32,000 bases of DNA from Trichodesmium erythraeum IMS101 (GCF_000014265.1 NC_008312.1:5370001-5402000); one strand, 5' to 3'. Counted from the stretch's first letter, positions 1-21,011 are shown. Translations and numbers: made by a program. Notes: generated by a model not told the origin, from the sequence alone.

Positions 1-2069
1 ACAGCGACATCTCTGCTGACGCTGAAAAAGCATCTGGAGGCCAAGTCGACATCACCGCAGCAGGTATATTCGGCATAAAATTCCGTCCTGAAAAAACAGA
101 AAGAAGTGATATCACAGTCACCTCAGAATTTGACAGAGATGGAGAAGTCAATATCAACACCCCCGATGTAGATCCTAGTGACGGACTAGTAGAATTTGAC
201 GATACCATCCCAGATATCTCCAACCTCCTCGACCAAAACCCTTGCCGAAAAGGACAAAACAGCAAATTCATCATTACAGGAAGAGGTGGCTTACCACCAA
301 CTCTCGAAGATCCCTTTACTCCCACCCACATCTGGCAAGGCTCAGAAACCTCAGTTACTCCTCCAAAAGCCATCACTCCATCAGAGCAAGAATTCATTGA
401 AGCACAAGGTTGGATCTCTAATTCTCAAGGTATTGAACTGATCACCAACCCCGAAACTGCTACTCCCACCTCCCCTTGGTTAATACCTCCCAACTGCAAA
501 CAATTAGACGCCTTTGAACCCCCACCCTATCTACTCGCTAGCAGTAAGGGAAATATTCCCACCTCAACTTCTGAACCTCTAAAAGTTACTATCAAACAAT
601 TCAACTTTGAGGGTAACACAAAATTTAGCAACCAAGAGCTACAACAACAACTCACACCTTATCTAAATAAACCCATTACCTTTGCTCAACTCATAGCAGC
701 ACGCACTGCTATTACAAAATATTATACCAAAAACAACTACATCACATCGGGAGCATTTATTCCTCCCCAAACTATGTCTGACAATGGCACAGTTACCCTC
801 CGAGTAGTAGAAGGAAAAGTTGGTGAAATCAACGTCAATATCCAAGGTAGATTAAATGAAAATTATATCAAAAGTCGGTTAGAAAAAGCTACCACAGCTC
901 CTCTGAATCAAGAAAAATTGGTGTCTGCCCTACAACTATTACAAATAGACCCTTTAGTCAAAACTATATCTGCGGAACTTTCATCCGGAGTCCGCCCAGA
1001 TACAAGTAGGTTAGACATAAGAATAGAAACAGCTAACCCCTGGCAAATAGAAACTATCAGTAATAATGGCAGGGCACCAAGTGTGGGAACATTCAGGCGA
1101 GGGGTAGAAGTAGGTCATAGGAATGTTACAGGTATTGGAGACAGTTTAAATGCTCTCTACACGAATACTGATGGCAGCGACATGGTAGAAGTATCTTATG
1201 CTATTCCTGTGAACTCCAGTAATGGTCGTATCGAACTATTTTATCGCCACAGAGATAATAAGGTAGTAGAATCACCTTTTGAAAGACTCGATATTGAGTC
1301 AAATTCAAATACTTACAAGTTATCATTTAGTCAACCAATAATGCAAACACCCTGGCAAACTTTAACTTTGGGTTTATCTGCAATAAAGCGAGATAGTCAA
1401 ACTTCCATATTAGGAGAGAATTATCCATTATCTGAGGGTGCAGATGAAAATGGGGAAACGAAATTATCAATTTTGCAGCTTTTCCAAGATTATGAACTAC
1501 GGGGAAAAAATCAAGTTTTGGCGTTTAATTCTCAGTTGAATGTAGGGTTGGGAATATTGGATGCCACAAAGAATAGTAGTGAACCGGATAGTCGATTTTT
1601 GTATTGGCGGGGTCAGGGACAATGGGTGCGTGAGTTAGCCAAAAATACTTTGTTGGTGGTTGGAGCAGATCTACAGTTATCTCCATTTGATTTGGTGCCT
1701 AAAGAGCAGTTTGGTTTAGGAGGTTATCGAAGCGTGAGAGCCTATCGTCAGGATACTCGTTTAACAGATAATGGAGCGTTGGGAACAGTGGAGTTGCGCT
1801 TGCCGCTGCCCTGGATATCTGGAAAAAATAGATTATTTCAGGTAGTGCCGTTTATTGATGGGGGGGTAGCATGGAATAGTGATGATGAAGAGGTAGAAGG
1901 AAGTAAGGCTTTGGCGGCGGCCGGGGTGGGGTTGCAGGTAAATTTATGGGAGAAGATAAATATGCGCTTAGATTATGGAATTCCTTTAGTGGATGTGGAC
2001 TCGCCAGATAAAACGGCTCAGGAGGAAGGGTTTTATTTTTCTTTTTCTACTACTCCTTTTTCTTTTTGA
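1..2069 (+). CDS. 5'-truncated (window edge) paralog of the fused TpsA-passenger/TpsB-transporter protein: end of the beta-helical passenger, Pro-rich linker, 2 POTRA, ShlB/FhaC-type beta-barrel
   Basis: The frame starting at nt 3 is open to the stop at 2067-2069. My translation reads SDISADAEKASGGQVDITAAGIFG...NPCRKGQNSKFIITGRGGLPP...EAQGWISNSQGIELI...KVTIKQFNFEGNTKFS. The ORF-track entry 774..2069 is only the part after the first ATG. It is collinear with about aa 703-1391 of the 5265..9440 protein at a constant 7371-nt offset. It ends in FSF, an aromatic OMP beta-signal. Confidence 0.8.
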   Translation, partial: SDISADAEKASGGQVDITAAGIFGIKFRPEKTERSDITVTSEFDRDGEVNINTPDVDPSDGLVEFDDTIPDISNLLDQNPCRKGQNSKFIITGRGGLPPTLEDPFTPTHIWQGSETSVTPPKAITPSEQEFIEAQGWISNSQGIELITNPETATPTSPWLIPPNCKQLDAFEPPPYLLASSKGNIPTSTSEPLKVTIKQFNFEGNTKFSNQELQQQLTPYLNKPITFAQLIAARTAITKYYTKNNYITSGAFIPPQTMSDNGTVTLRVVEGKVGEINVNIQGRLNENYIKSRLEKATTAPLNQEKLVSALQLLQIDPLVKTISAELSSGVRPDTSRLDIRIETANPWQIETISNNGRAPSVGTFRRGVEVGHRNVTGIGDSLNALYTNTDGSDMVEVSYAIPVNSSNGRIELFYRHRDNKVVESPFERLDIESNSNTYKLSFSQPIMQTPWQTLTLGLSAIKRDSQTSILGENYPLSEGADENGETKLSILQLFQDYELRGKNQVLAFNSQLNVGLGILDATKNSSEPDSRFLYWRGQGQWVRELAKNTLLVVGADLQLSPFDLVPKEQFGLGGYRSVRAYRQDTRLTDNGALGTVELRLPLPWISGKNRLFQVVPFIDGGVAWNSDDEEVEGSKALAAAGVGLQVNLWEKINMRLDYGIPLVDVDSPDKTAQEEGFYFSFSTTPFSF

Positions 2070-2096
2070 GCAGGGAGGTAAACTGATAGGATGAAG
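1..2096 (+). repeat. Copy A of a 2.1-kb direct repeat (3' part of the fusion gene plus 26 nt past the stop)
   Basis: It aligns with 7372-9467 with no net indel: stop codons 2069 versus 9440 and alt-frame ORFs 196 versus 7567 both differ by 7371. Similarity ends after ...ggtaaactgataggatgaa. Confidence 0.9.
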
Positions 2097-2194
2097 CTTA
2101 GGTAATTATGACACGCCAGTTGAAAGTAATTGAAAGTAGAAGGAAGTGAAACCCAATACACTCTTTATTGTTTAGACATTTATATATATTTATT

Positions 2195-4717
2195 ATGAAG
2201 ATCATAAAATTGCTCGCTATTACTCTATTAAGTTTCTGTATCACTGTGGGAATTAATATTTTACCTCCCACTTTAGCTGAATCTTCTGCCACTCATCTAG
2301 TTCAAGAAGGAACTCAATTATTACAACAAGGAAAGGCAGAAGCAGCATTAGAAATTTGGCAAAAAGCAGAGGAACTTTATCGCCAAAATCAAAATCAAAC
2401 TGGTATTATCGGTACCAAAATTAATCAAGCTCAAGCTTTAACCAGTTTGGGTTTTTATGGACGTTCGTGTAATACTGTCTTACAAGCATTTGGCAATGAT
2501 TTAGAATGCGCTCGCTTAACTGAAAATGACTTAGAAAATGTTCTGGAAAAGTTTCAAACATCAAATACTAGCCTAAATTTTCAGGGATTACAAATTTTAG
2601 GAAATGGACTGCTGGCGTTCGGTAAATTGGAGTTATCTGAAAAGGTATTAGAAGCAAGTTATAAGTGGGTAAATTCTAACAATACTAAAGCTCAATTGTT
2701 GATAAGTTTAGGTAACAATAGGCTTTCTCAAGCTCAAAATATTGCTGTCGATCGTAGAAGTGGAAAAGATGAACGAGCGCTTCGAACCCTAGTTGATCAA
2801 AGTTTATCTAATTATCAAGAAGCTGCCAGTATTTCTACTGACAAATCAGTTCAAATTCAAGGAACTATTAATAATCTTAGTTTGCTAGTCAAATTTACTA
2901 AAGAAATTGGTGATTTAGATACTTATGTACAATTTCAGATTGAAACTTTACCCGAAATTATTGATTTTTTAAATCAAATTAATCCTACTCCTAAATCAAT
3001 TAGAGCCAGAATTAAATTAGCAGAAATTTTTACAAATATTGAGGAAATTAAAGATCAATCAGCTTTTGTTGAATTTCAAACTAATATTACTAAGTTAACT
3101 CCACCTAGCGAATTATTAAATCAGGCAATTGAAGAAGCAAAAGATATTAATAATTTCCGTTTAGAAGCTTATGGACTTAGTACCAAGGCAAAATTGAATC
3201 TCAAAAAAGGAAACCTAGAAGAAGCACTTAAATTGACAAATAAAGCATTATTGACTGCTCAAAAAGTATCTGCTTATGATATTGTTTATCAACTCCAAGA
3301 ACAATTAGGAGATATTTTTATTAAGCAAGGAAATTATTCAGAGGCACTCTTAGCTGACAAATCTGCTTTTAATACTCTCCAAGTTTTACGACAGGATTTA
3401 GTAGCATTAAATAGAAATATTCAGTTTAACTTTCGTGATAGTATTGAACCTTTGTATAGAAAATTACTAGACTTATTACTTCAACCTGAACTCGGCTCAA
3501 ATCAACCCAATGTGGAAAATATTAAAGTTGCTGTTGAAGTAATTGAATCTCTACAATTGGCAGAATTGGATAATTTTTTCCAAGATGCTTGTGTGAATGC
3601 TCAGGATATTAATATTGATGAAATTGATGAGAATGTAGCTGTTATTTATCCAATCTTATTCAAGGATAGATTAAGTGTAATTCTTAAATTGCCTGGTACT
3701 GATAGTTTTCGTTATGCTACCGTGAGTGAGAATGACTTTCAAGCTAAATTTGAGAAAAACCTATTGGGACTCAGAGTTAATATTACGAGTCTAAAGCGAA
3801 AACCAAGACTAATAGGTGAAGTCAAATTCCAGTCAAATCAACTTTACAATTGGTTAATTAAACCTTTTGAGGGATATTTGGAAATAGATCTAAAAGATGA
3901 TGCGAGTCAAATAAAAACCCTAGTTTTTGTCTTGGAAGGAAATCTCAGAAATATTCCTATGTCCGTTTTATATGATAGTAAACGGGAAAGATATTTAGTG
4001 GAACGATACGCGATCGCTGTGGCTCCCAGTTTGGAATTGCTCCCTCCCAAACCCTTATTAAAACAGCAAATACGAGTATTAACTACTGGAACAGATAAAG
4101 AAGCACCAAGTTATAGACAGAGAGGCTATGATGATTTACCTAATGTTAAACAGGAACTAGAGAGTATCAATAAAACGGCGCCACAGTCTGAGGCATTAGT
4201 AGATGAAAAATTCACAGAAATTAATATATCTGACAAAATTAATTCTGAGTCCTTTAACATCGTCCATATTGCAACTCACGGACAATTTAGCTCTAATTCT
4301 GATCAAACCTTCATTTTAGCATGGGATAAACCTATTAACGTTAAAGATTTCGATCAACTGCTCCAGAGTGAGAATTTGCAGCGATCACAGCGAGCTATAG
4401 AATTATTAATTTTAAGTGCTTGCCAAACAGCATTTGGAGATCAACGAGCAGCATTGGGTTTAGCTGGAGTTGCAGTTCGGGCGGGCGCTCGTAGTGTTTT
4501 AGGGAGTTTATGGAGGGTAGATGATGCCTCTACAGCAGAATTAATGAAACAATTTTATCAACAATTATTTCAGTCTAATACTTTACAACTGAAAAAAGCA
4601 GAAGCACTACGTCAAGTTCAAATTAAATTTATCAAAGGAGAGATTGAAACAAATTCAGAGGAATACAAGAAACCTTATTATTGGTCACCATTTATTATGG
4701 TCGGGAATTGGTTATAG
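2195..4717 (+). CDS. Exported CHAT-domain (caspase-fold) protease with an N-terminal TPR-like helical region
   Basis: The ORF opens at TTG 2168, but ATG 2195 gives MKIIKLLAITLLSFCITVGINILPPTLA/ES, a classic Sec signal peptide. The C-terminal part has the CHAT catalytic dyad context: VHIATHGQF (His codon 4277-4279) and LLILSACQTAFG (Cys codon 4421-4423), followed by LGSLWRVDD. It lies 126 nt downstream of the preceding gene on the same strand. Confidence 0.85.
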   Translation: MKIIKLLAITLLSFCITVGINILPPTLAESSATHLVQEGTQLLQQGKAEAALEIWQKAEELYRQNQNQTGIIGTKINQAQALTSLGFYGRSCNTVLQAFGNDLECARLTENDLENVLEKFQTSNTSLNFQGLQILGNGLLAFGKLELSEKVLEASYKWVNSNNTKAQLLISLGNNRLSQAQNIAVDRRSGKDERALRTLVDQSLSNYQEAASISTDKSVQIQGTINNLSLLVKFTKEIGDLDTYVQFQIETLPEIIDFLNQINPTPKSIRARIKLAEIFTNIEEIKDQSAFVEFQTNITKLTPPSELLNQAIEEAKDINNFRLEAYGLSTKAKLNLKKGNLEEALKLTNKALLTAQKVSAYDIVYQLQEQLGDIFIKQGNYSEALLADKSAFNTLQVLRQDLVALNRNIQFNFRDSIEPLYRKLLDLLLQPELGSNQPNVENIKVAVEVIESLQLAELDNFFQDACVNAQDINIDEIDENVAVIYPILFKDRLSVILKLPGTDSFRYATVSENDFQAKFEKNLLGLRVNITSLKRKPRLIGEVKFQSNQLYNWLIKPFEGYLEIDLKDDASQIKTLVFVLEGNLRNIPMSVLYDSKRERYLVERYAIAVAPSLELLPPKPLLKQQIRVLTTGTDKEAPSYRQRGYDDLPNVKQELESINKTAPQSEALVDEKFTEINISDKINSESFNIVHIATHGQFSSNSDQTFILAWDKPINVKDFDQLLQSENLQRSQRAIELLILSACQTAFGDQRAALGLAGVAVRAGARSVLGSLWRVDDASTAELMKQFYQQLFQSNTLQLKKAEALRQVQIKFIKGEIETNSEEYKKPYYWSPFIMVGNWL

Positions 4718-4967
4718 CAATACAGGGAAAAGGGGAGACCCCTGTTCCATAATGTTCTAGAAAAAAACTTTTCTACTAAAAATATAATAGCCTAACAAAA
4801 TTCCATGGCGACATTCCCTAGCCTCAGCATAATTAATAATTTATTCTCTTGTAGGTTGGGTTGCACTGACCGTTACAAACCCTTAAGCGAACACAAATAT
4901 CTATCTATTAGACATCTAGACATCTGCCTCAACTAAGTTTTTACCCACAACAAAATCAGTTATTAGT

Positions 4968-5191
4968 TCAGGACTTATAGTCATTTTACAGCAGTTTTCA
5001 TCTTGGTAGACCACAGTAGGGACGCCCTTATGCAATGTCCCTACAAAATTTTGGTTATGATGATGTAGTTCATCAATTTGAAAACTGCTATAATTTAGAT
5101 TCAGGACTTACGTAAAGGCACTACTTGTAGTGTAAATATCTAAATTTATTGTCAAAAATGCACTATATATGCCGGCACTGCGTAAGTCCTG
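4968..5191. repeat. Nested inverted and direct repeats, MITE-like small repeat elements in the intergenic region
   Basis: tcaggactta occurs at 4968 and 5101. caggacttacg (5102-5112) pairs with cgtaagtcctg (5181-5191) as a perfect 11-nt inverted repeat. cagcagttttca (about 4991) pairs with tgaaaactgcta (about 5081). A central hairpin is formed by gtagggac...gtccctac (about 5018-5047). Confidence 0.4.
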
Positions 5192-5264
5192 GAAATATTA
5201 AATTTATTTGCGAAAAATGTTTGATTATTAGATAATAATGACAGGATTATTTTAGTTAAAAAAT

Positions 5265-8200
5265 ATGAATTTTTATTTTGTTGTAACTCGTCAATATTTA
5301 CTTAAATCTCACACAAATTTTACAATAACGCTACGCCGCAAATCATCTACAATAAATCGCTATTTAAGAACAGAATCTTTAAATTCAGAAGATTTATGGC
5401 GAAATCTTACTCTTAGTGTTTTTCTCCTCTTTGGATTTTTTTCCCCCTCTGCCCTCGCTTTTTTTATTCATTTTCTCCTCTTTGGATTTTTTTCCCCCTC
5501 CGCCCTCGCTCAACTCCAACCAGATAATACATTGGGAGAAGAAAATTCAGTCGTCACACCGAATATCAATATTAAAGGGATAGAAAGCGATCGCATAGAT
5601 GGCGGGGCCCAAAGAGGGGCCAACTTATTCCACAGTTTTCAAGAATTCAACATTCAACAGGGACGAGGGGTTTACTTTAGCAACCCTGATGGAGTTCAAA
5701 ATATCCTGACTCGGGTCACAGGAAACAATGGCTCTAACATATTAGGAACCTTGGGTGTAGATGGAAAAGCTGATTTATTTTTCATTAACCCCAATGGCAT
5801 AATCTTTGGACCAGAGGCTAAACTAGATGTCCAAGGTTCATTCTATGGAGCTACTGCCGATAGTATCTTATTTAAAAATGGATTTGAATTTGCTAGTTCA
5901 GACCCTCAAGCGCCCCCACTACTTACAGTTAATGTTCCCATTGGTTTGAGGTTGCCCGAAAAGCCAGGTAGTATTCTGGTTGAGGGTCAAGGTCATAACA
6001 TAAATATGTCAGAGTACCTAGAAACATATGGATATAGAAACAGAAAAGAGGACCGGAATCTAGGGTTGGAAGTTTCCCAAGGCCAAACCTTAGGGTTAGT
6101 TGGTGGTGATATATTCTTAAGGGGGGGAAACCTCACATCAGATGGAGGACGTGTTGAATTAGGAAGTGTTCAGAATGGTGTAGTAGAAATCACTACCGAC
6201 CGTACCCTTAGCTATGATAAAAATCTGGAATTTGGCCAAATCATACTATCAGAAGCGAGTTCTATAGATATAAGTGGAAATGGAAGAGTAGAATTTCAAA
6301 TTCAAGGAGAAGAGATCAACGTGCAAGATAATTCACTAATTTTAGGAAAGATATTGGGTGATGAGGACGGAGGAAATTCAATTATTAGAGCATCTAAGTC
6401 TATTAAAATAGGACCTACAAAACCTTTTGAGAAGATTCCTGTGAAAATAAAAATTGTTAATTTTACCTATACTTTTAATAAGACTATGAGTTCTATTTTT
6501 CTAAACACTTATGGTAAGGGAGATGTCGGAGAGTTGAGGGTGAAAACAGAAAGTTTAACGCTGCAAGATGGAGCCGTTATTTATACCGGTACTGTGGGTC
6601 AGGGAAATGCAGGGAATTTAACAGTCTCTGCTAGAGACATAGAAATAAATGGTGGGAATTATGCGACTGGATTTTTTCCAACGACATTAGCAGAAGGTAA
6701 CGGAGGGAATTTGACGGTGGAAGTTGCAGAAAGTTTAACGCTGCAAGATGGAGCCGTTATGTCTGCCGGTACTGGGTATCAGGGAAATGCAGGGAATTTA
6801 ACAGTCTCTGCTAGAGACATAGAAATGAGTGGTTTTGTTGTTGTTACAACAATCACTGAAACAACAGGTAACGGAGGGAATTTGACGGTGGAAGTTGCAG
6901 AAAGTTTAACGCTGCAAGATGGAGCCGTTATGTCTGCCGGTACTGTGGGTCAGGGAAATGCAGGGAATTTAATAGTCTCTGCTACAGACATAGAAATAAT
7001 AGGCAAATCTCCTGATGGTAAATCCTTCAGTCGCTTAACCGCAGAAGCAACAAATGAATCAACAGGAGCAGCAGGAACCATAACCATCAACACCGAAACC
7101 CTCAACCTCCGGAACGAAGCCGAAATTATAGTCACCTCTGCTACCCAACAAGCTGCAGGTGACTTAATAATAAACAGCAACAACATCCGCATCGAAAACC
7201 AAGCTAGTCTCAAAGCTGAAACCAAAGGAGGTCAAGGCAGCATTACCATCAATAATAATAAAGACCTCATCCTGCGTAACAACAGCAACATCACCACTAA
7301 TTCTGAAGGCACGGCTACTGGAGGTAATATTACCATTAATACGGAAAACCTAGTTGCCCGAGACAACAGCGACATCACTGCTAACGCTGTCGAAGGATTT
7401 GGAGGCCGAGTTAACATCACCGCAGCCGGCATATTCGGCACAGAATTCCGTCCCGAACAAACCGAAAAAAGTGACATCACCGCCACCTCAAAATTAGGAG
7501 CTTCATTCAGTGGAGAAGTCAATATCAACACCCCTGATGTAGATCCTAGTGACGGGCTAGTAGAATTTGAGGATACCATCCCAGATATCTCCAACCTCCT
7601 CGACCAAAACCCTTGCCGACAAGGACAAAAAAGCAAATTCATCATTACAGGAAGAGGCGGCTTACCACCAACTCTCGAAGAACCCTTGGCTCCCACCTAC
7701 CTCTGGCAAGACTCAGAAACCTCAGTTACTCCTCCACCAGCTATCACTCCATCAGAGCAAGAGTTCATTGAAGCACAAGGTTGGATCTCTAATTCTCAAG
7801 GTATTGAACTGATCACTGACCCCGAAACTGCTACTCCCACCTCCCCTTGGTTAATACCTCCCAACTGCGAACAATTAGACACCTTTGAACCCCCACCCTA
7901 TCTACTCGCAAGCAGTAAGGGAAATATTCCCACCTCAACTTCTGAACCTCTAAAAGTTACTATCAAACAATTCAACTTTGAGGGTAACACAAAATTTAGC
8001 AACCAAGAGCTACAACAACAACTCACACCTTATCTAAATAAACCCATTACCTTTGCTCAACTAATAGCAGCACGCACTGCCATTACAAAATTTTATACTA
8101 AAAACAACTACATCACATCGGGAGCATTTATTCCTCCCCAAACTATGGCTGAAAATGGCACAGTCACCCTCCGAGTAGTGGAAGGAAAAGTTGGTGAAAT

Positions 8201-9440
8201 CAATGTCAATATCCAAGGTAGATTAAATGAAAATTATATCAAAAGTCGGTTAGAAAAAGCCACCACGGCTCCTCTGAATCAAGAAAAATTGTTGTCTGCC
8301 CTACAAATATTACAAATAGACCCTTTAGTCAAAACTCTATCTGCGGAACTTTCATCCGGAGTCCGCCCAGATACAAGTAGGTTAGACATAAGAATAGAAA
8401 CAGCTAACCCCTGGCAAATAGAAACTATCAGTAATAATGGCAGGGCACCAAGTGTGGGAACATTCAGGCGAGGGGTAGAGGTAGGCCATAGAAATGTTAC
8501 AGGTATTGGAGACAGTTTAAGTGCTCTCTATACTAATACTGATGGCAGCGATATGGTAGAAGTATCTTATGCTATTCCTGTGAACTCCAGTAATGGTCGT
8601 ATCGAACTATTTTATCGCCACAGAGATAATAAGGTGGTAGAATCACCTTTTGAAAGACTTGATATTGAGTCAAATTCAAATACTTACAAGTTATCATTTA
8701 GTCAACCAATAATGCAAACACCCTGGCAAACTTTAAGTTTGGGTTTATCTGCAATAAAGCGAGATAGTCAAACTTCTATATTAGGAGAGAATTATCCATT
8801 ATCTGAGGGTGCTGATGAAAATGGGGAAACGAAATTATCAATTTTGCAGCTTTTCCAAGATTATGAACTACGGGGAAAAAATCAAGTTTTGGCGTTTAAT
8901 TCTCAGTTGAATGTAGGGTTGGGAATATTGGATGCTACAAAGAATAGTAATGAACCGGATGGTCGATTTTTTTATTGGCGGGGTCAAGGACAATGGGTGC
9001 GTGAGTTAGGCAAAAATACTTTGTTGGTGATGGGAGCAGATCTACAGTTATCTCCATCTGATTTGGTGCCTAAGGAAAGGTTTGGTTTAGGGGGTTATCG
9101 AAGTGTGAGAGCTTATCGTCAGGATACTCGTTTGACAGATAATGGAGCGTTGGGAACAGTGGAGTTGCGGTTGCCCGTGCCCTGGATATCTGGAAAAAAT
9201 AGATTATTTCAGGTAGTGCCGTTTATTGATGGGGGGGTAGCATGGAATAGTGATGGTAAAGAGGAGGAAGGAAGTAAGGCTTTGGCGGCGGCCGGGGTGG
9301 GGTTGCAGGTAAATTTATGGGAGAAGATAAATATGCGCTTAGATTATGGAATTCCTTTAGTGGATGTGGACTCCCTAGATAAAACGGCTCAGGAGGAAGG
9401 GTTTTATTTTTCTTTTTCTACTACTCCTTTTTCTTTTTGA
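5265..9440 (+). CDS. Single-polypeptide fusion of a TpsA-like passenger (TPS/haemagglutination-activity domain plus repetitive beta-helix) with a TpsB-like transporter (2 POTRA plus ShlB/FhaC/HecB-type barrel)
   Basis: 1391-aa uninterrupted ORF. Hydrophobic signal region ...FGFFSPSALA/QLQPDNTLGEENSVV. TPS motifs GANLFHSFQEFNI, FSNPDGVQNILTRVTG and FINPNGIIFG (NPNG at 5787). Gly/Asn/Thr-rich beta-helix repeats. The conserved cyanobacterial TpsA C-terminus is present (NPCRQGQKSKFIITGRGGLPP...EAQGWISNSQGIELI). A Pro-rich linker follows, then POTRA-like KVTIKQFNFEGNTKFSNQEL...LRVVEGKVGEINV, then a barrel ending in FYFSFSTTPFSF. Confidence 0.85.
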   Translation: MNFYFVVTRQYLLKSHTNFTITLRRKSSTINRYLRTESLNSEDLWRNLTLSVFLLFGFFSPSALAFFIHFLLFGFFSPSALAQLQPDNTLGEENSVVTPNINIKGIESDRIDGGAQRGANLFHSFQEFNIQQGRGVYFSNPDGVQNILTRVTGNNGSNILGTLGVDGKADLFFINPNGIIFGPEAKLDVQGSFYGATADSILFKNGFEFASSDPQAPPLLTVNVPIGLRLPEKPGSILVEGQGHNINMSEYLETYGYRNRKEDRNLGLEVSQGQTLGLVGGDIFLRGGNLTSDGGRVELGSVQNGVVEITTDRTLSYDKNLEFGQIILSEASSIDISGNGRVEFQIQGEEINVQDNSLILGKILGDEDGGNSIIRASKSIKIGPTKPFEKIPVKIKIVNFTYTFNKTMSSIFLNTYGKGDVGELRVKTESLTLQDGAVIYTGTVGQGNAGNLTVSARDIEINGGNYATGFFPTTLAEGNGGNLTVEVAESLTLQDGAVMSAGTGYQGNAGNLTVSARDIEMSGFVVVTTITETTGNGGNLTVEVAESLTLQDGAVMSAGTVGQGNAGNLIVSATDIEIIGKSPDGKSFSRLTAEATNESTGAAGTITINTETLNLRNEAEIIVTSATQQAAGDLIINSNNIRIENQASLKAETKGGQGSITINNNKDLILRNNSNITTNSEGTATGGNITINTENLVARDNSDITANAVEGFGGRVNITAAGIFGTEFRPEQTEKSDITATSKLGASFSGEVNINTPDVDPSDGLVEFEDTIPDISNLLDQNPCRQGQKSKFIITGRGGLPPTLEEPLAPTYLWQDSETSVTPPPAITPSEQEFIEAQGWISNSQGIELITDPETATPTSPWLIPPNCEQLDTFEPPPYLLASSKGNIPTSTSEPLKVTIKQFNFEGNTKFSNQELQQQLTPYLNKPITFAQLIAARTAITKFYTKNNYITSGAFIPPQTMAENGTVTLRVVEGKVGEINVNIQGRLNENYIKSRLEKATTAPLNQEKLLSALQILQIDPLVKTLSAELSSGVRPDTSRLDIRIETANPWQIETISNNGRAPSVGTFRRGVEVGHRNVTGIGDSLSALYTNTDGSDMVEVSYAIPVNSSNGRIELFYRHRDNKVVESPFERLDIESNSNTYKLSFSQPIMQTPWQTLSLGLSAIKRDSQTSILGENYPLSEGADENGETKLSILQLFQDYELRGKNQVLAFNSQLNVGLGILDATKNSNEPDGRFFYWRGQGQWVRELGKNTLLVMGADLQLSPSDLVPKERFGLGGYRSVRAYRQDTRLTDNGALGTVELRLPVPWISGKNRLFQVVPFIDGGVAWNSDGKEEEGSKALAAAGVGLQVNLWEKINMRLDYGIPLVDVDSLDKTAQEEGFYFSFSTTPFSF
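5421..5510 (+). repeat. In-frame tandem duplication (39-nt unit, 51-nt period) inside the signal-peptide coding region
   Basis: tttctcctctttggatttttttccccctc(t/c)gccctcgct occurs at 5421-5459 and 5472-5510 with one synonymous difference. It encodes FLLFGFFSPSALA twice. Confidence 0.9.
5511..6250 (+). other. TPS (two-partner-secretion / haemagglutination activity) domain of the fusion protein (approximate bounds)
   Basis: It starts right after the predicted ALA/Q cleavage site and contains the NPxG-type motifs listed above. Boundaries are estimated by eye. Confidence 0.6.
6531..7010 (+). repeat. Three near-identical in-frame repeats (periods 180 and 171 nt) in the passenger beta-helix
   Basis: gaaagtttaacgctgcaagatggagccgttat starts at 6549, 6729 and 6900. 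The encoded unit is GNGGNLTVEVAESLTLQDGAVMSAGTxxQGNAGNLTVSARDIE. Confidence 0.85.
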
Positions 9441-9467
9441 GCAGGGAGGTAAACTGATAGGATGAAT
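7372..9467 (+). repeat. Copy B of the 2.1-kb direct repeat
   Basis: See copy A. There are 10 mismatches in the first 60 aligned nt, versus 2 in 60 nt at 841-900 / 8212-8271. Confidence 0.9.
7950..9437 (+). other. TpsB-like module: two POTRA domains (about 7950-8415) and a ShlB-type beta-barrel (about 8416-9437)
   Basis: Motif reading: FEGNTxFSxxEL, ITxxYxxxxYITSGAxIPPQ and VxLxVVEGK are typical of ShlB-type POTRA. The segment is about 340 aa with alternating-polarity barrel sequence and a C-terminal Phe. Boundaries are approximate. Confidence 0.6.
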
Positions 9468-9563
9468 GATTACAGGGAATAGTGGCTAAGTTTTTCTTTG
9501 AAGTTTAATGGTAAAATTATATTAAGCTACTTCTATATCTAATAATTTATAATTTAACCATAG

Positions 9564-9580
9564 GCGAGCTAGAAGCTCGC
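9564..9580. terminator. GC-rich hairpin between convergent genes (possible bidirectional terminator, no clear U-tract)
   Basis: gcgagct-aga-agctcgc forms a 7-bp perfect stem. It lies 12 nt beyond the clpB stop and about 125 nt beyond the fusion-gene stop. Confidence 0.25.
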
Positions 9581-9591
9581 AATTTATATAA

Positions 9592-12309
9592 TCACCTTTT
9601 TACCAATTTTCCCTCCTCTTTTTTCTTAAAAACTAAACCACTATCTACAAAATCAATGATCACAACATCCCCACAAACAAACCTATTCTCCAAAATTTGA
9701 TTTGCCAGAGGATTTTCTAATTCTCGCTGAATTGCCCGCTTTAAAGGTCTGGCTCCATAAACTGGGTCATATCCTACTTCAGTAATGTGATCTAAAGTCG
9801 CATCAGTCAACTGCAAACTAATCTTTTGTTCTCCTAATAACCGTTCAATTCTCTTGACTTGAATTTCCACAATTTGACGTAATTCACTCTTCCTTAGAGT
9901 ATGGAATAAAATAATCTCATCTACCCTATTTAAAAATTCAGGGCGGAAATGTTTTCGCAGTGCTCCCATCACCCGCTTATACATCTCCTCATACTTAGAA
10001 TCATCTCCCGCCACATCTAAAATATACTCACTACCAATATTACTAGTCATCACAATTACAGTATTACTAAAATCAATAACCCGACCCTGAGAATCAGTAA
10101 TTCGACCATCATCCAAAACCTGCAACAAAATATTAAACACATCTGGGTGCGCCTTCTCCACCTCATCAAACAATACCAAAGAATAAGGATGTCGCCTGAC
10201 TGCCTCCGATAATTGACCCCCTTGGTCATAACCCACATATCCAGGGGGAGCACCCACCAAGCGAGCAACAGCATGTTTCTCCATATATTCCGACATATCA
10301 ACTCGTACCAAAGCATCATCCCGGTCAAAGAGAAACCCTGCCAATGCCCGCGCCAACTCAGTTTTACCAACCCCAGTCGGACCCAAAAACATAAACGAAC
10401 CAATGGGTCTTCCTGGGTCTTTCATTCCTGCTCTCGCCCTTCTAATAGCTGCTGCTACAGCTGCTACAGCTTCTGACTGCCCAATAACCCTTTGATGAAG
10501 ATGTTTTTCCAGTTGTAGTAATTTCTGCCGTTCCGACTCCAATAAACGATTTACCGGAATACCAGTCCACTTAGCAACAATTGTAGCAATATCCCCATCA
10601 GTCACCTGTTCTCGGAGGAGAAAAGAACCTTGAGCTTGCACTTTTAATAACTCTGCCTCTTGGGCTTCGCGATCGCGATGAACTGTTTCTAATTGCCCAT
10701 ATTTTAACTGAGCTGCCGTATTCAGATCATAAGCTCGTTCTGCTTGTTCTATTTGTACTTTAATTTTATCTTCTTCTGCCTTCAAAGAATTAATAGAATT
10801 TAACAACTCTTTTTCCCCAGACCATTGAGAAGAAAATTTCTCCTGCTTTTGCTTTAAACTATTAATTTCATTAGTAATGCGCTCTAAAGCAGGAGATACC
10901 TTTGTAGACAGAATAGCTTCAGAATTTTTTTCCTTATTAGTACCTGACAACTCTCCCTCAATAGAAAGTTTCTCCATTTCCAACTGCATTATCCGTCTGT
11001 CAATAGCTTCTAACTCAACTGGTTTAGAAGTAATTTCCATTTTTAATTGAGCAGCAGCTTCATCTACCAAGTCGATCGCCTTATCTGGCAAAAAGCGGTC
11101 AGAAATATATCGGTTAGACAAAGTAGCAGCAGCAACCAAAGCCGCATCAGTAATTTTCACACCGTGGTGAGTTTCGTAGCGGTCTTTCAACCCCCGCAAA
11201 ATAGAAATAGTATCCTCAACACTAGGCTGACCAACCTCTACTTTTTGAAACCGACGTTCCAGGGCAGCATCTTTTTCTATATGTTTGCGATATTCATCAA
11301 TAGTTGTTGCACCGATACAACGCAGTTCACCACGAGCCAGCATTGGTTTCAACAAATTTCCGGCATCTACACCAGAACTGTTACCCCCACCAGAACCTGC
11401 TCCAACAACTGTATGTAACTCATCAATAAACAGAACTATTTGACCATCAGAATGGGTAACTTCTCGTAAAACCGATCTAAGACGTTCTTCAAATTCTCCT
11501 CTAAACTTAGCCCCCGCAATGAGACTACCCATATCAAGACTAATAAGTTGACGTTCTTTAAGAGACTCTGGCACATCACCATTAACAATACGTTGAGCTA
11601 AACCCTCCGCGATCGCTGTTTTTCCCACCCCCGGTTCTCCAATAAGTACAGGATTATTTTTTGTCCGACGAGATAGACAACTAACCACCCGCCGAACTTC
11701 CTCATCTCTGCCAATAACCGGGTCAAGTTTACCTACTTTCGCTAACTCTGTCAGGTCACGCCCATATTTAGCTAAAGCATCATAAGTAGCTTCTGGGTTT
11801 TGGTCTTCGACTTTGCTACTACCTCGAAATGCTTTAATAGTTGCCTCTAGTTCTTTAAATTCAATTTGTAGAGTAGTTTGGGGGGGAGCAAAACCAGGGC
11901 GAGTTGGTAGTTGGGGAGTTCCACCACCAATAAGTTTATTACCCAGACGTTTATCTTCGTGAAAAGCGAGTAGAAAGTGTTCCACAGCAATAAATTTATC
12001 TTCCCACTTTTCTTTAGCTTGATCAGCCAGGTCTAAAAAAGTTTCCAGACCTTGACCTAAATATAGATGTTCTATACTGCCAACTTTAGGTTGACGTCTC
12101 ACAAAAGCATCTACTTGTTGTAGGAGCTTTTCTGGTTCTATACCAGAACGGCTTAAGATTTTATTCGCTGTGCCTTGTTGTTCTAGGAGGGCAATAATTA
12201 GGTGTTCTACTTCCAGTTGTTGGTTTTGGTAGCGTTTGGCAACGTCTTGGGATTTTACTATAGCATCCCAGGCTTGTTCTGTAAATTTGCTTGGGTCAGT
12301 TGGCTGCAT
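9592..12309 (-). CDS. clpB: ATP-dependent chaperone/disaggregase ClpB
   Basis: 905 aa. It has a Clp N-domain, two AAA+ modules with Walker A motifs GEPGVGKT and GPTGVGKT, and a long coiled-coil middle domain between them. Typical ClpB signatures RRFQKV and [10 protein letters not shown] are present. Confidence 0.95.
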
Positions 12310-20800: not shown

Positions 20801-21011
20801 AAATACTCGGCTGTTGTGAAATAGGGGAGCGATCGCTATAGTAAAAATAGAATATTTTATTGCTCAAAACATCATAAGTTAAGATCAAGTTTGAGCTTTA
20901 AAGTTGATGTTCTCCGGGGAAATTAGTGATAATTTATTGCTGATTCTGTATAATTATGGTATGATTGTTATAAAAAATCCTGTTATAATTTTTGACCCGG
21001 CTTTTGTTTTT

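Follow-up and report, generated by a model that had tools for sequence, protein, structure and literature searches.

A predicted exported TPR-CHAT protein encoded between fused TpsA-TpsB genes in Trichodesmium erythraeum: a candidate protease for a conserved TpsA C-terminal module

The window, by which we mean the whole 32,000-nucleotide stretch of Trichodesmium erythraeum IMS101 DNA that was analysed (NC_008312.1:5370001-5402000), carries on one strand, in this order, a partial fused TpsA-TpsB gene, a TPR-CHAT gene and a complete fused TpsA-TpsB gene, with the following features:

3..2069, + strand, fused TpsA-TpsB paralog 1, partial (last 688 codons and stop, open in frame 3): end of the beta-helix passenger, C-terminal TpsA module, two POTRA domains and barrel
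153..503, + strand, conserved TpsA C-terminal module of paralog 1 (HMM match aa 51-167, E 1.4e-28)
2195..4717, + strand, predicted exported TPR-CHAT protein, 840 aa (100% identical to ABG52578.1, T. erythraeum)
2195..2278, + strand, predicted Sec signal peptide, aa 1-28, cleavage after TLA and before ES (hydropathy, conservation)
2288..3580, + strand, TPR-like helical repeat region, aa ~32-462 (AF2 helix pairs; Pfam TPR_12/TPR_2)
3833..4708, + strand, CHAT (caspase-fold) domain, aa 547-838 (Pfam PF12770, E 7.7e-62)
5265..9440, + strand, fused TpsA-TpsB paralog 2, complete, 1391 aa (ORF, Pfam, homolog search)
5265..5510, + strand, long N-terminal leader and signal peptide of paralog 2 (comparison of homolog N-termini)
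5508..6233, + strand, TPS secretion domain, aa 82-323 (Pfam TPS, TIGR01901; NPNGI at aa 175-179)
6234..7523, + strand, beta-helical passenger, Cys-free (homology to cyanobacterial filamentous haemagglutinin-like proteins)
7524..7874, + strand, conserved TpsA C-terminal module of paralog 2, aa 754-870, 117 aa (HMM E 4.3e-28)
7875..7952, + strand, Pro-rich fusion junction, 26 aa, aa 871-896 (comparison with unfused TpsB N-termini)
7953..8402, + strand, two POTRA domains, aa ~897-1046 (Pfam POTRA_2 aa 899-974; AF2 model)
8412..9437, + strand, TpsB/Omp85-type beta-barrel, 16-stranded, aa ~1050-1391 (Pfam ShlB; 16 strands in the AF2 model)

The original prediction of two fused TpsA-TpsB genes flanking a CHAT gene on the same strand was borne out by the open reading frames and by Pfam matches to TPS, POTRA_2 and ShlB, and HMM searches with the three proteins recovered the expected architectures (TPS, POTRA_2, ShlB, TPR, CHAT). 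The close spacing it gave for the first two genes also stands, with a small correction to the count: the CHAT start codon (ATG at 2195) lies 125 nt beyond the paralog 1 stop, rather than 126. Frame 3 is open from base 3 to that stop (2067-2069), and the 688 residues encoded match POTRA_2 (E 4e-21) and ShlB (E 9e-25). Paralog 1 shares ~96% nucleotide identity with the 3' part of the 5265-9440 gene, the homology extending 28 nt beyond both stop codons, and 91% amino acid identity with a third fused T. erythraeum paralog, P0121.

Paralog 2 combines TPS (Pfam, E 1.3e-52), POTRA_2 and ShlB in a single reading frame. Its TPS domain, which also matches TIGR01901 adhes_NPXG (E 1e-26), has the NPNG-type motif of a TpsA and stands N-terminally, behind a predicted Sec signal peptide; comparison with homolog N-termini, which end in ...AIA or ALA followed by QLQPDN, places the predicted cleavage after SALA82 and before QLQPDN. 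The leader contains a 51-nt tandem duplication (5420-5470 and 5471-5521) that doubles LLFGFFSPSALA, and the passenger holds 57-aa (171-nt) tandem repeats at 6547-6999. The C-terminal half has the build of a TpsB by Pfam, AF2 and Foldseek alike: two POTRA domains, modelled as two beta-alpha-alpha-beta-beta units, are followed by the 16-stranded barrel, with CdiB (E 1e-25) and FhaC (E 2e-22) as structural matches. Its L6 motif is VRAY (aa 1281-1284, 9105-9116), of the VRGY/F type found in TpsB proteins, the family consensus being SVRGYRQD. Paralog 2 differs from a canonical TpsA in that it is not a polypeptide separate from its TpsB, both being encoded by the single ORF 5265-9440. The fusion is real and a frameshift artefact is ruled out, because the in-frame junction recurs in paralog 1, P0121 and ~40 homologs, including fused proteins from other genera down to 33% identity. 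The fused protein is self-contained and autotransporter-like, with a signal peptide, a TPS domain, a Cys-free beta-helix, the C-terminal module, two POTRA domains and a 16-strand barrel.

A fusion of this kind was noted earlier in the same organism as Tery_3487 (Arnold, Zeth & Linke 2010, PMC2878562; Leo, Grin & Linke 2012, PMC3297439), with the same architecture of a haemagglutinin-like beta-helical passenger, two POTRA domains and a barrel. Both fused genes of the window fall into the Tery_3487 paralog family, represented in IMS101 by three or more members. Those papers note the existence of the fusion, state that functional data on it are lacking, and mention neither a CHAT gene nor a C-terminal module or Cys pair (PMC2878562, PMC3297439). 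The fused proteins are also reminiscent of type Vd PlpD, in which the passenger likewise lies N-terminal to POTRA and a 16-strand Omp85-type barrel and is released proteolytically (PMC5422565). In PlpD, however, the passenger is a patatin, there is just one POTRA-like domain and a TPS domain is lacking. We rejected a type Vd identity for the window proteins, which gave no patatin match and have a TPS domain, a beta-helix and two POTRA domains instead.

The protein encoded between the two fused genes begins with MKIIKLLAITLLSFCITVGINILPPTLA/ES, a signal-peptide-like N-terminus with a hydrophobic core reaching a Kyte-Doolittle 12-residue mean of 2.46; the call is based on hydropathy, an A-x-A-like site and conservation. 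Equivalent N-termini are present in 94 of 115 full-length homologs, the other 21 being mostly start-codon miscalls that begin within the signal peptide. Position 15 is a Cys, but this residue lacks a lipobox context and is not conserved. The CHAT profile scores 209.8 bits (cut-off 24), and the predicted catalytic residues are His695 (HIATHG, codon 4277-4279) and Cys743 (LSACQTA, codon 4421-4423), both invariant in an alignment of 25 homologs at 40-73% identity. Two earlier claims, a clean Sec signal peptide and an intact His/Cys dyad at codons 4277 and 4421, are thus upheld, the former as a predicted feature, and the protein is presumably an active protease. The AF2 model (mean pLDDT 80.7) consists of an all-helical repeat region followed by an alpha/beta domain. 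In searches of the PDB with the family profile the LGN/Pins and kinesin light-chain TPRs were found with E-values up to 5e-14, and by this profile likeness the repeat region resembles the peptide-binding TPRs of the LGN type. There is also a weak Peptidase_C25 match (E 1.4e-4). Elsewhere in the window a second, larger TPR-CHAT protein is encoded, with a PPC domain typical of secreted proteases.

The best PDB fold matches of the TPR-CHAT model are Csx29/TPR-CHAT, the periplasmic domain of DdvA (E 2.4e-10) and separase. DdvA is the only characterised extracytoplasmic TPR-CHAT protein and has a His-Cys dyad, but it is membrane-anchored, carries a cytoplasmic zinc anti-sigma domain, forms dimers and is proposed to cleave itself, whereas the window protein has neither an anti-sigma domain nor a TM helix and is predicted to be soluble once its signal peptide is removed. 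A DdvA-like anti-sigma factor was rejected, as just the 28-aa signal peptide precedes the TPR region and the match is one of fold alone. Csx29 of the type III-E CRISPR Craspase and separase are the best structural matches to the whole TPR-CHAT architecture, and both are site-specific and regulated. They are, however, cytoplasmic, and Csx29 requires gRAMP/Cas7-11. A Csx29 identity was likewise set aside, with an NCBIfam NF041237 score of 23.1 bits against a cut-off of 300 and no cas genes among the window ORFs; a PADLOC scan returned no match.

The stretch at about 7600-7950 had been taken for a linker. It is no artefact of the fusion but a complete conserved TpsA C-terminal module (aa 754-870), followed by the 26-aa Pro-rich junction. 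An HMM trained solely on unfused TpsA C-termini matches the paralog 2 module over 129 of 130 model positions. The module comprises Cys784 (7614-7616), TGRGGLP (7647-7667), a variable Pro/Ser/Thr spacer, a beta-hairpin at EAQGW (7770-7784 onward) and Cys868 (7866-7868); paralog 1 has the same order, Cys81, TGRGGLP, EAQGW and Cys165 (numbered on the partial protein). Of 120 family members, 119 carry it, at the terminus in 71 unfused proteins and internally in 41 fused ones. C784 and C868, ~84 residues apart, are the sole cysteines among the 1391 residues of paralog 2, and exactly two cysteines are present in 111 of the 119 modules, compared with 0.008 Cys per 100 aa in the passengers (130,509 residues). 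The pair probably forms a disulfide. In the AF2 model the module is a hairpin at EAQGW with low confidence elsewhere, so that it is predicted to be mostly disordered and suited to be a protease substrate. Free-standing cyanobacterial TpsBs begin with a signal peptide and a Pro-rich N-terminal extension; the junction takes the place of the former and of most of the latter. In these TpsBs the extension occupies the position where the H1 plug helix is expected; the AF2 model shows no helix between the module and POTRA1, a stretch with pLDDT <50. We infer that the module sits in the periplasm, the alternative being surface exposure, as the 26 residues after Cys868 could span the pore.

Across cyanobacteria, the predicted exported CHAT ortholog is preceded on its own strand by a TPS/ShlB ORF that ends <1.2 kb upstream of it at 43 of 68 loci. 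Where at least 5 kb is available on both sides (n=43), TPS/ShlB genes occupy the upstream same-strand slot at 27 loci, and the other three adjacent slots hold 2, 1 and 1. The synteny spans Nostocales, Oscillatoriales, Coleofasciculales, Pseudanabaena and others, in dozens of species. The original prediction had suggested that CHAT genes often neighbour haemagglutinin-like and ShlB genes in cyanobacteria, and it named a lack of co-occurrence as grounds for abandoning the idea; the co-occurrence is strong and biased to the upstream same-strand position. Fused genes outside Trichodesmium have a TPR-CHAT gene immediately downstream in all seven examined, and at four of these the called fused and CHAT genes overlap by 49 nt. 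A CHAT-TpsA Rosetta-stone fusion was absent among the best 120 matches of the CHAT search and of the fused TpsA-TpsB search. The partner of CHAT is usually an unfused TpsA, and the suggestion that tethering of the passenger to POTRA domains by the fusion accounts for the presence of the protease is not supported. Because most partners are unfused, the pairing predates the fusion and is independent of it; 'release from the barrel' therefore cannot be its original purpose. We found no published description of a link between CHAT and TpsA genes.

Most CHAT loci in relatives also hold a DUF928 gene, a CHAT-CHASE2 membrane protein gene and a DUF1822 gene. In the set of 43 loci with flanks of at least 5 kb on either side, CHASE2 proteins are encoded at 38 and DUF928 at 30; DUF928, CHAT-CHASE2 and DUF1822 occur together at six of the seven fused loci outside Trichodesmium, and at two loci they make up one co-directional operon. 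Weak Sigma70 r3/r4 matches come from flanking genes (a sigma-like gene), and in some DUF928 proteins a short motif is repeated in arrays, in the manner of a multi-copy propeptide. None of the DUF928, CHAT-CHASE2, DUF1822 and sigma genes was found in the six frames of the window at E <= 0.01, and Okeania and Dapis, the closest relatives, have no DUF928, CHASE2 or DUF1822 within reach of TpsAB and CHAT. Since Trichodesmium, Okeania and Dapis have lost the other cassette genes and retain TpsA(B) and CHAT alone, a direct relationship between these two is indicated. The window is best explained as a reduced, two-component version of a conserved cyanobacterial TpsA and TPR-CHAT cassette.

We tentatively propose, as a reading that falls somewhat short of being probable, that a periplasmic CHAT protease cleaves the C-terminal module of TpsA and thereby controls anchoring, maturation or shedding of the filament. 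The passenger would be threaded outward through the barrel, and the conserved module would stay behind in the periplasm as a stopper. There the TPR superhelix of the TPR-CHAT protein might bind the disordered module and CHAT would cleave it. The fate of the filament, continued anchoring or else maturation or shedding, would depend on this cut; for the fused proteins it would also be the sole route to detach the passenger. A cut within the disulfide-closed loop alone would leave two halves joined. That TpsA is the substrate we infer from its tail, a module that is near-universal (119/120) and kept whole in the fusions; the 25 of 68 CHAT loci with no same-strand TPS/ShlB gene within 1.2 kb upstream count against it. 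The CHAT proteases known so far are under tight control and kept inactive at rest (PMC11506125), and the locus shows no evident activator.

The proposal has a counterpart in Pseudomonas aeruginosa, where a C-terminal cysteine hook holds the TpsA protein CdrA in CdrB and the periplasmic cysteine protease LapG releases it (PMC7616799, PMC4694147, bioRxiv 10.64898/2026.07.13.738186). In that system a Cys-containing TpsA retention tail meets a Sec-exported periplasmic cysteine protease that sheds the adhesin. The window offers a similar combination, a conserved C-terminal Cys pair (C784 and C868) and a co-encoded, predicted exported cysteine protease, and by analogy the module is a candidate periplasmic retention module and protease target. 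The likeness does not extend to the enzymes: LapG is a DUF920/C93 transglutaminase-like protein unrelated to CHAT, its gene is not adjacent to cdrAB, and it is controlled by LapD and c-di-GMP, to which nothing in the window is comparable; the cleavage motif TAAG is absent as well. Neither LapG-family (DUF920/C93) nor LapD-type Pfam matches were found in the CHAT protein or in the scanned window ORFs of at least 100 aa, a ClpB-like ORF at 9592-12309 excluded. In Bordetella, the two-partner secreted beta-helix protein FhaB of the FhaB-FhaC system keeps its C-terminal part in the periplasm, where it is removed by SphB1, CtpA and DegP. These are serine proteases of other families, and the FhaB prodomain, at ~1200 aa, is unrelated to the 117-aa cyanobacterial module.

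The main rival takes the exported TPR-CHAT protein as one step of a trans-envelope signalling or conflict system, in which a surface TpsA would act through periplasmic CHAT on DUF928 and/or the CHASE2 ectodomain, and from there through a cytoplasmic CHAT on DUF1822 and a sigma-like factor. TpsA would then be a sensor or bait and not a substrate, and the Trichodesmium locus a remnant or one with unlinked partners; we regard this as possible but doubtful. The DUF928, CHASE2, DUF1822 and sigma-like set does look like a signalling pathway and offers alternative CHAT substrates. Its frequency (CHASE2 at 38/43 and DUF928 at 30/43 loci, the full set at 6/7 fused loci), the Sigma70 r3/r4 matches and the propeptide-like DUF928 arrays all argue in this direction. 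DdvA provides a precedent for a periplasmic TPR-CHAT protein that controls a sigma factor (PMC11506125), and systems of EACC2, caspase-CHASE2, DUF1822 and ECF sigma factor, described as apoptosis- or immunity-like (Kaur, Iyer, Burroughs & Aravind 2021, PMC8195603), resemble the CHAT-CHASE2, DUF1822 and sigma-like neighbours of TpsA and CHAT in related loci. That description, however, is without TPS/haemagglutinin genes, DUF928 or an exported TPR-CHAT protein, and the window, lacking CHAT-CHASE2, DUF1822 and sigma genes at E <= 0.01, was not assigned to the caspase-CHASE2/DUF1822/sigma cassette. Moreover, the window, Okeania and Dapis keep TpsAB and CHAT with no DUF928, CHASE2 or DUF1822 within reach, and the tightest and most polar linkage is that from TPS to CHAT, as overlapping or adjacent same-strand genes. 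Signalling would in any case be compatible with cleavage of TpsA. Somewhat unlikely in our view, TpsA, exported TPR-CHAT, DUF928, CHAT-CHASE2, DUF1822 and the divergent sigma-like factor would together form an undescribed cyanobacterial cell-surface signalling system, with two caspase-fold proteases, one at either face of the inner membrane. Contact, damage or phage at the surface filament could lead periplasmic CHAT to generate a cleavage product from the TpsA tail or DUF928; CHASE2 might sense that product and set off cytoplasmic CHAT together with a response in transcription or cell death. The fused TpsAB-CHAT locus of Trichodesmium would be a streamlined offshoot.

Alternatively, TPR-CHAT could serve quality control, docking on POTRA or unfolded TpsA and degrading stalled or misfolded intermediates with no specific cut. 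Precedents are BepA, which combines TPR and an M48 protease at the BAM complex, and DegP in the case of FhaB. A predicted exported TPR scaffold with a protease domain, seemingly co-expressed with an Omp85-family transporter and its very large unfolded substrate, would suit such a role, as would the close operon coupling of CHAT with TpsAB in relatives. Yet the CHAT/separase-type proteases characterised so far are highly site-specific and regulated rather than bulk degraders, and specific recognition is suggested by the TpsA tail, in which TGRGGLP, EAQGW and the Cys pair are strictly conserved. We consider general quality control distinctly improbable. Still harder to defend is CHAT as an effector or cargo that reaches the surface or medium, whether bound to TpsA via its TPRs or exported in some other way, and there works on targets outside the cell, for instance other cells, grazers or phage. 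Clan CD includes extracellular effectors, gingipains among them, the CHAT protein carries a predicted export signal and the weak Peptidase_C25 match, and the larger TPR-CHAT protein of the window bears its PPC domain; by Pfam, however, neither a TPS domain nor any other known signal for outer-membrane targeting is present in CHAT, no neighbour of toxin-immunity style was seen, and the conserved partner motif sits at the C-terminus of TpsA, which leaves the periplasm last. Chance adjacency of three functionally unrelated genes, for which only the general caveat that synteny is not function can be raised, is effectively refuted by the recurrence of the pairing in dozens of species across cyanobacterial orders with order and strand fixed (binomial P ~2e-68 for 43/68, on the assumed and probably generous figure of 1% of genes being TPS).

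To our knowledge, no substrate is known for any soluble extracytoplasmic CHAT protease. The locus gives a testable enzyme-substrate hypothesis, a TPR-CHAT protein and a 117-aa Cys-bracketed TpsA tail whose pairing is conserved in hundreds of cyanobacterial genomes, for a group of organisms in which none of the two-partner secretion systems had been studied functionally (PMC2878562). If cleavage of the TpsA tail is correct, a caspase-fold protease would join LapG and SphB1 among the few enzymes that control type V adhesins, and it would be explained how a fused TpsA-TpsB, an evolutionary bridge from type Vb to autotransporter-like types, could nevertheless set its passenger free. In Trichodesmium, it would provide a handle on surface filaments that may, speculatively, govern the aggregation of trichomes into colonies, a trait with biogeochemical consequences. 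Should the signalling interpretation hold instead, the locus would represent a new trans-envelope proteolytic pathway in multicellular bacteria. The fusion itself was already known; what we propose as new is the CHAT link and, with it, a protease-controlled variant of type Vb secretion.

The linkage is further supported by arrays of two to three tandem TpsA genes followed by one CHAT gene, at five loci, and by two convergent TPS-to-CHAT units within one locus, with divergent variants of both the module and CHAT.

Bases 1-9467 hold three genes, all on the same strand.

Genes of bases 1-9467
3-2069 (+), paralog 1: partial fused TpsA-TpsB gene (type Vb passenger joined to its outer-membrane transporter); frame 3 open, stop at 2067-2069, last 688 residues, with POTRA_2 and ShlB
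2195-4717 (+), TPR-CHAT gene: exported putative protease, ATG at 2195, 840 aa
5265-9440 (+), paralog 2: complete fused gene, 1391 aa, with TPS (E 1.3e-52), POTRA_2 and ShlB in one ORF

The ORFs, the domains and the dyad codons at 4277 and 4421 were all verified, so that the three-gene observation of the original prediction is borne out. The CHAT protein matches ABG52578.1 / WP_011612920.1 at 100% identity, and its ATG lies behind a spacer of 125 nt from the stop of paralog 1. The 547-nt spacer between the CHAT gene and paralog 2 contains no recognisable feature, and promoter scan, terminator scan and Rfam gave no signal exceeding background. Paralogs 1 and 2 share ~96% nucleotide identity across their common part, the homology (1-2097 vs 7372-9468) extending 28 nt beyond both stop codons; a third fused paralog (ABG52378.1), elsewhere in the genome, is 88-91% identical. 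Unlike Tery_3486, a gene of 60% GC whose neighbouring tag is the Tery_3487 of the literature, the window has no region of ~60% GC.

The N-terminus of the CHAT protein, MKIIKLLAITLLSFCITVGINILPPTLA/ES, has the n/h/c arrangement typical of a Sec signal peptide. Signal-peptide-like N-termini occur in 94 of 115 full-length homologs, the rest being mostly gene calls that begin within the signal peptide. A lipoprotein reading was ruled out, given that Cys15 is unconserved and has no lipobox. His695 and Cys743 are invariant in the alignment of CHAT homologs. In the AlphaFold2 model (mean pLDDT 80.7), helical repeats at aa ~32-462 are followed by an alpha/beta domain, and the top PDB fold matches are the type III-E CRISPR TPR-CHAT proteases, DdvA (a Myxococcus anti-sigma factor, matched at its periplasmic TPR-CHAT domain) and separase. 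Searching the PDB by sequence with the family profile returned TPR proteins only; the CHAT kinship emerged by fold comparison. A role in CRISPR or defence was ruled out: the protein scores 23 bits against the Csx29 family, far under the cut-off of 300, and is not a member; moreover, PADLOC gave no hit and cas genes are absent. DdvA is proof that extracytoplasmic TPR-CHAT proteins exist, and domains of its type stay inactive until triggered (PMC11506125); the window protein differs in having neither an anti-sigma nor a transmembrane part.

How general is this pairing? Scanning one genome per GTDB species with an exported-CHAT profile gave at least 595 loci, of which we used the best 80 (36-64% identity, nearly all cyanobacterial), screening the ORFs of all six frames with TPS, TpsB and CHAT HMMs. 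Where 3 kb or more of DNA precedes CHAT, 43/68 loci have a TPS/ShlB ORF on the same strand that ends no more than 1.2 kb from the CHAT ORF, and a TPS/ShlB gene lies within 10 kb of CHAT in 28 of the 35 loci that extend at least 9 kb to either side. The association is directional: among the 43 loci that extend 5 kb or more to each side, the upstream, same-strand adjacent slot is filled by TPS/ShlB 27 times, the other three slots 2, 1 and 1 times. In other genera the TPR-CHAT gene is directly downstream of every fused gene checked (7/7), with gene calls overlapping by 49 nt in 4/7 of these cases outside Trichodesmium. The association of CHAT with TPS genes mentioned in the original prediction is thus confirmed by the locus counts and the seven fused genes. 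The fusion had been put forward as the cause of the pairing, and this was not supported: the partner in almost all CHAT-TPS loci is an ordinary unfused TpsA. Judged from gene order, the association is ancestral to the fusion and not its consequence. A single CHAT gene can also follow tandem arrays of two or three TpsA genes (five loci: L069, L002, L011, L036, L045), and no Rosetta-stone fusion of CHAT with TPS was found among the top matches listed. The loci of Tolypothrix (L004) and Calothrix brevissima (L006) carry two convergent TPS(-ShlB)-CHAT units back to back, with divergent sequences; the second TpsA has the tail motif ARGW in place of EAQGW, and its CHAT paralog is divergent. This suggests, at the level of sequence, that the TpsA and CHAT variants are cognate pairs. 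Two loci are peculiar. A cyanobacterial-type locus with a CHAT ortholog of 37% identity (L056) lies inside a MAG labelled Actinomycetota, probably a binning error, and a 148-aa CHAT-domain fragment downstream of an intact TPR-CHAT gene in Dapis (L084, 13983-14429) is probably the leftover of a duplicated copy.

The fusion itself is real and, as an observation, already published. Arnold et al. (2010; PMC2878562) noted it as Tery_3487, and Leo, Grin and Linke (2012; PMC3297439) cited it as a TPSS fusion whose passenger is beta-helical; the two papers remark that functional data are absent, and survey papers that came later, on TPS systems or the Omp85/TpsB superfamily, leave it undiscussed. A frameshift or assembly artefact was ruled out: three T. 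erythraeum paralogs and ~40 homologs from other genera all keep one frame across the junction. Okeania, Dapis, Laspinema, Baaleninema, Geitlerinema and uncultured relatives share the fused architecture, at identities as low as 33%. Free-standing cyanobacterial TpsB proteins have a signal peptide and then a Pro-rich extension of 50-70 aa ahead of POTRA1; compared with these, the fused gene has lost the stop codon of TpsA, along with the signal peptide and some of the Pro-rich extension of TpsB. Its likely precursor is the gene order TPS-ShlB-CHAT, which is present in several Nostoc loci (L039, L042, L047, L064).

Features of paralog 2 (+ strand)
Long leader and signal peptide, cleavage predicted at SALA82/QLQ
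aa 82-323, TPS domain, NPNGI at 175-179
Beta-helical passenger, 57-aa repeats
aa 754-870, conserved C-module (the TpsA tail), 117 aa
26-aa Pro-rich junction, between C-module and POTRA domains
Two POTRA domains and 16-stranded barrel, L6 motif VRAY

The closest structural matches of the transporter part are the TpsB transporters CdiB and FhaC. The sole in-frame ATG of paralog 2 is at 5265, giving an unusually long leader of ~50 aa ahead of the hydrophobic core. The signal-peptide coding region contains a 51-nt tandem duplication of that core (5420-5521, +; 30 nt exact), doubling 'LLFGFFSPSALA' and creating two possible signal-peptidase sites. In the passenger, a 171-nt tandem repeat (6547-6999, +; 2.6 copies, 86% matches) encodes the 57-aa beta-helix units ('ESLTLQDGAV...GQGNAGNLTVSARDIE'), with a copy number that varies among paralogs; the third T. 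erythraeum paralog (P0121) is 58 aa shorter. GC skew inside each fused gene is negative at the Pro/Thr/Ser-rich module and positive at Gly-rich regions, strong swings which reflect amino-acid composition and not a replication signal.

TpsA proteins adjoining CHAT have a C-terminal module in common. It starts with a Cys, ~10 residues and F-x-[IV]-T-G-R-G-G-L-P, continues with a variable Pro/Ser/Thr/Gln spacer of 40-60 residues, and ends with [IV]-E-A-Q-G-W, a short beta-hairpin, ~25 residues, a Cys and the protein end. What had been taken for a linker in the fused proteins is instead this conserved TpsA tail, since an HMM built solely from unfused proteins matches the window fusions along its whole length (aa 754-870, E 4e-28). 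With this HMM the module is found in 119/120 family members; it closes the protein in 71 unfused members and lies internally in 41 fused ones. C784 and C868, both within the C-module, are the only cysteines among the 1391 residues of paralog 2. Across the 119 proteins the passengers hold 0.008 Cys per 100 residues (130,509 residues), 113 of them having none, and 111 of the C-modules have exactly two. The AlphaFold2 model leaves the C-module disordered save for the EAQGW hairpin. Type V passengers avoid cysteines, as disulfide-closed loops block translocation; the loop of ~84 residues conserved at the passenger end is therefore best read as a putative stopper that would stay out of the pore.

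The nearest functional precedent for the TpsA-CHAT pair is CdrA/CdrB/LapG of Pseudomonas aeruginosa, in which a C-terminal cysteine hook holds the TpsA adhesin in its TpsB (PMC7616799, PMC4694147) and cleavage of this tail by LapG, a cysteine protease of the periplasm, sheds CdrA (PMC7616799, PMC4694147, bioRxiv 10.64898/2026.07.13.738186). By analogy, we tentatively propose, at somewhat less than even confidence, that the exported TPR-CHAT protein would cleave the TpsA tail and so control filament anchoring versus maturation or shedding. The disordered tail would be bound in the TPR groove, given the likeness of the TPR region to LGN-type TPRs, which bind peptides. In the fused proteins, a tail cut would be the sole route to passenger release; this part of the original prediction survives as a proposal. 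The analysis shows the architectures, the export signal, the dyad, the synteny, the C-module and its Cys pattern; we infer the periplasmic location of the C-module, its disulfide state, the protease activity and the identity of the substrate. Against tail cleavage, a cut within a closed disulfide loop would leave the halves joined, and the 26-aa junction could instead span the pore, placing the C-module outside.

Food for an alternative comes from the neighbours of CHAT in relatives. De novo clustering of ORFs at the 80 best CHAT loci yielded three more recurrent families: DUF928 (exported, ~270 aa; 44/80 loci, mostly straight downstream of CHAT), membrane proteins with a CHASE2 domain (55/80) and DUF1822. 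At the 43 loci whose flanks reach 5 kb or more on each side, TPS/ShlB is found in 35, CHASE2 in 38 and DUF928 in 30, and none lacks all three. In Laspinema, Baaleninema and several metagenomic genomes the genes follow one another as sigma-like, DUF1822, CHAT-CHASE2, DUF928, fused TpsAB and TPR-CHAT, and at two loci (L086, L087) the whole cassette is one co-directional operon. Kaur et al. (2021; PMC8195603) assigned caspase-CHASE2, ECF sigma factors and DUF1822 to apoptosis- or immunity-like systems, but TPS genes, DUF928 and exported TPR-CHAT are unmentioned there. A signalling role of CHAT within this larger cassette is rather unlikely as the main explanation, and it is compatible with tail cleavage, the two not being mutually exclusive. 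DUF928, CHASE2 and DUF1822 are absent from the window in all frames, and likewise from the Okeania and Dapis loci; the Trichodesmium-clade locus is thus pared down to TpsAB + CHAT, an argument for placing the core functional relationship between these two. Quality control at the transporter, in the manner of BepA or DegP, seems improbable, and we consider it very doubtful that the CHAT protein is a surface or secreted effector. Chance adjacency of the three genes is effectively excluded (binomial P ~2e-68 for 43/68, assuming 1% TPS genes, an assumed figure that is probably generous).

Genes flanking DUF1822 in the full cassette (L081, 22222-24117; L087, 3038-3739; L086, 3063-3758) match Sigma70 region 3/4 weakly (E 2e-4 to 3e-5) or not at all, and may be divergent sigma-like factors. 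Some DUF928 proteins (L050, 9394-10839; L051, 5770-6366) start with arrays of a 16-17-aa unit 'APRSGVAGGTRGDVQF', which recall a multi-copy propeptide and might be another substrate for the exported CHAT protein in place of TpsA. A relationship of the DUF928 N-terminal motif (G..P....GG.SRG.C) to the TpsA TGRGGLP was judged unconvincing, with the order of Cys and Gly-Arg reversed.

Protease control of type Vb adhesins is an already known principle. Literature searches on CHAT with TPS, haemagglutinin or ShlB, and on DUF928, CHASE2 and DUF1822, returned no paper describing the association. In the searchable literature we found no description of the conserved partnership between cyanobacterial TpsA proteins and a Sec-exported TPR-CHAT protein of caspase fold, of the Cys-bracketed C-module as a candidate target, or of the placement of the TpsA-CHAT set in a DUF928 / CHAT-CHASE2 / DUF1822 cassette. 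The finding, built entirely on comparative genomics and structure prediction, offers a specific testable hypothesis for two data-poor fields: type V secretion in cyanobacteria, and CHAT proteases that act outside the cytoplasm.

Elsewhere in the window, a ClpB-type AAA+ chaperone gene (9592-12309, -) is convergent with paralog 2, facing its 3' end, with a terminator-like hairpin between the two (9564-9580). A second, far larger TPR-CHAT protein of 1364 aa (20904-24998, +) has an N-terminal hydrophobic signal-like segment, PPC (pre-peptidase C-terminal), ~15 TPR_12 repeats and CHAT (E 4e-81), and is probably also exported, as judged from its sequence; it has no TPS neighbour and matches the exported-CHAT family HMM weakly (E 3e-36). 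Finally, near both CHAT genes lies a large predicted surface protein of 1531 aa (25593-30188, -) with ~12 SdrD_B / CarboxypepD_reg-like repeats.
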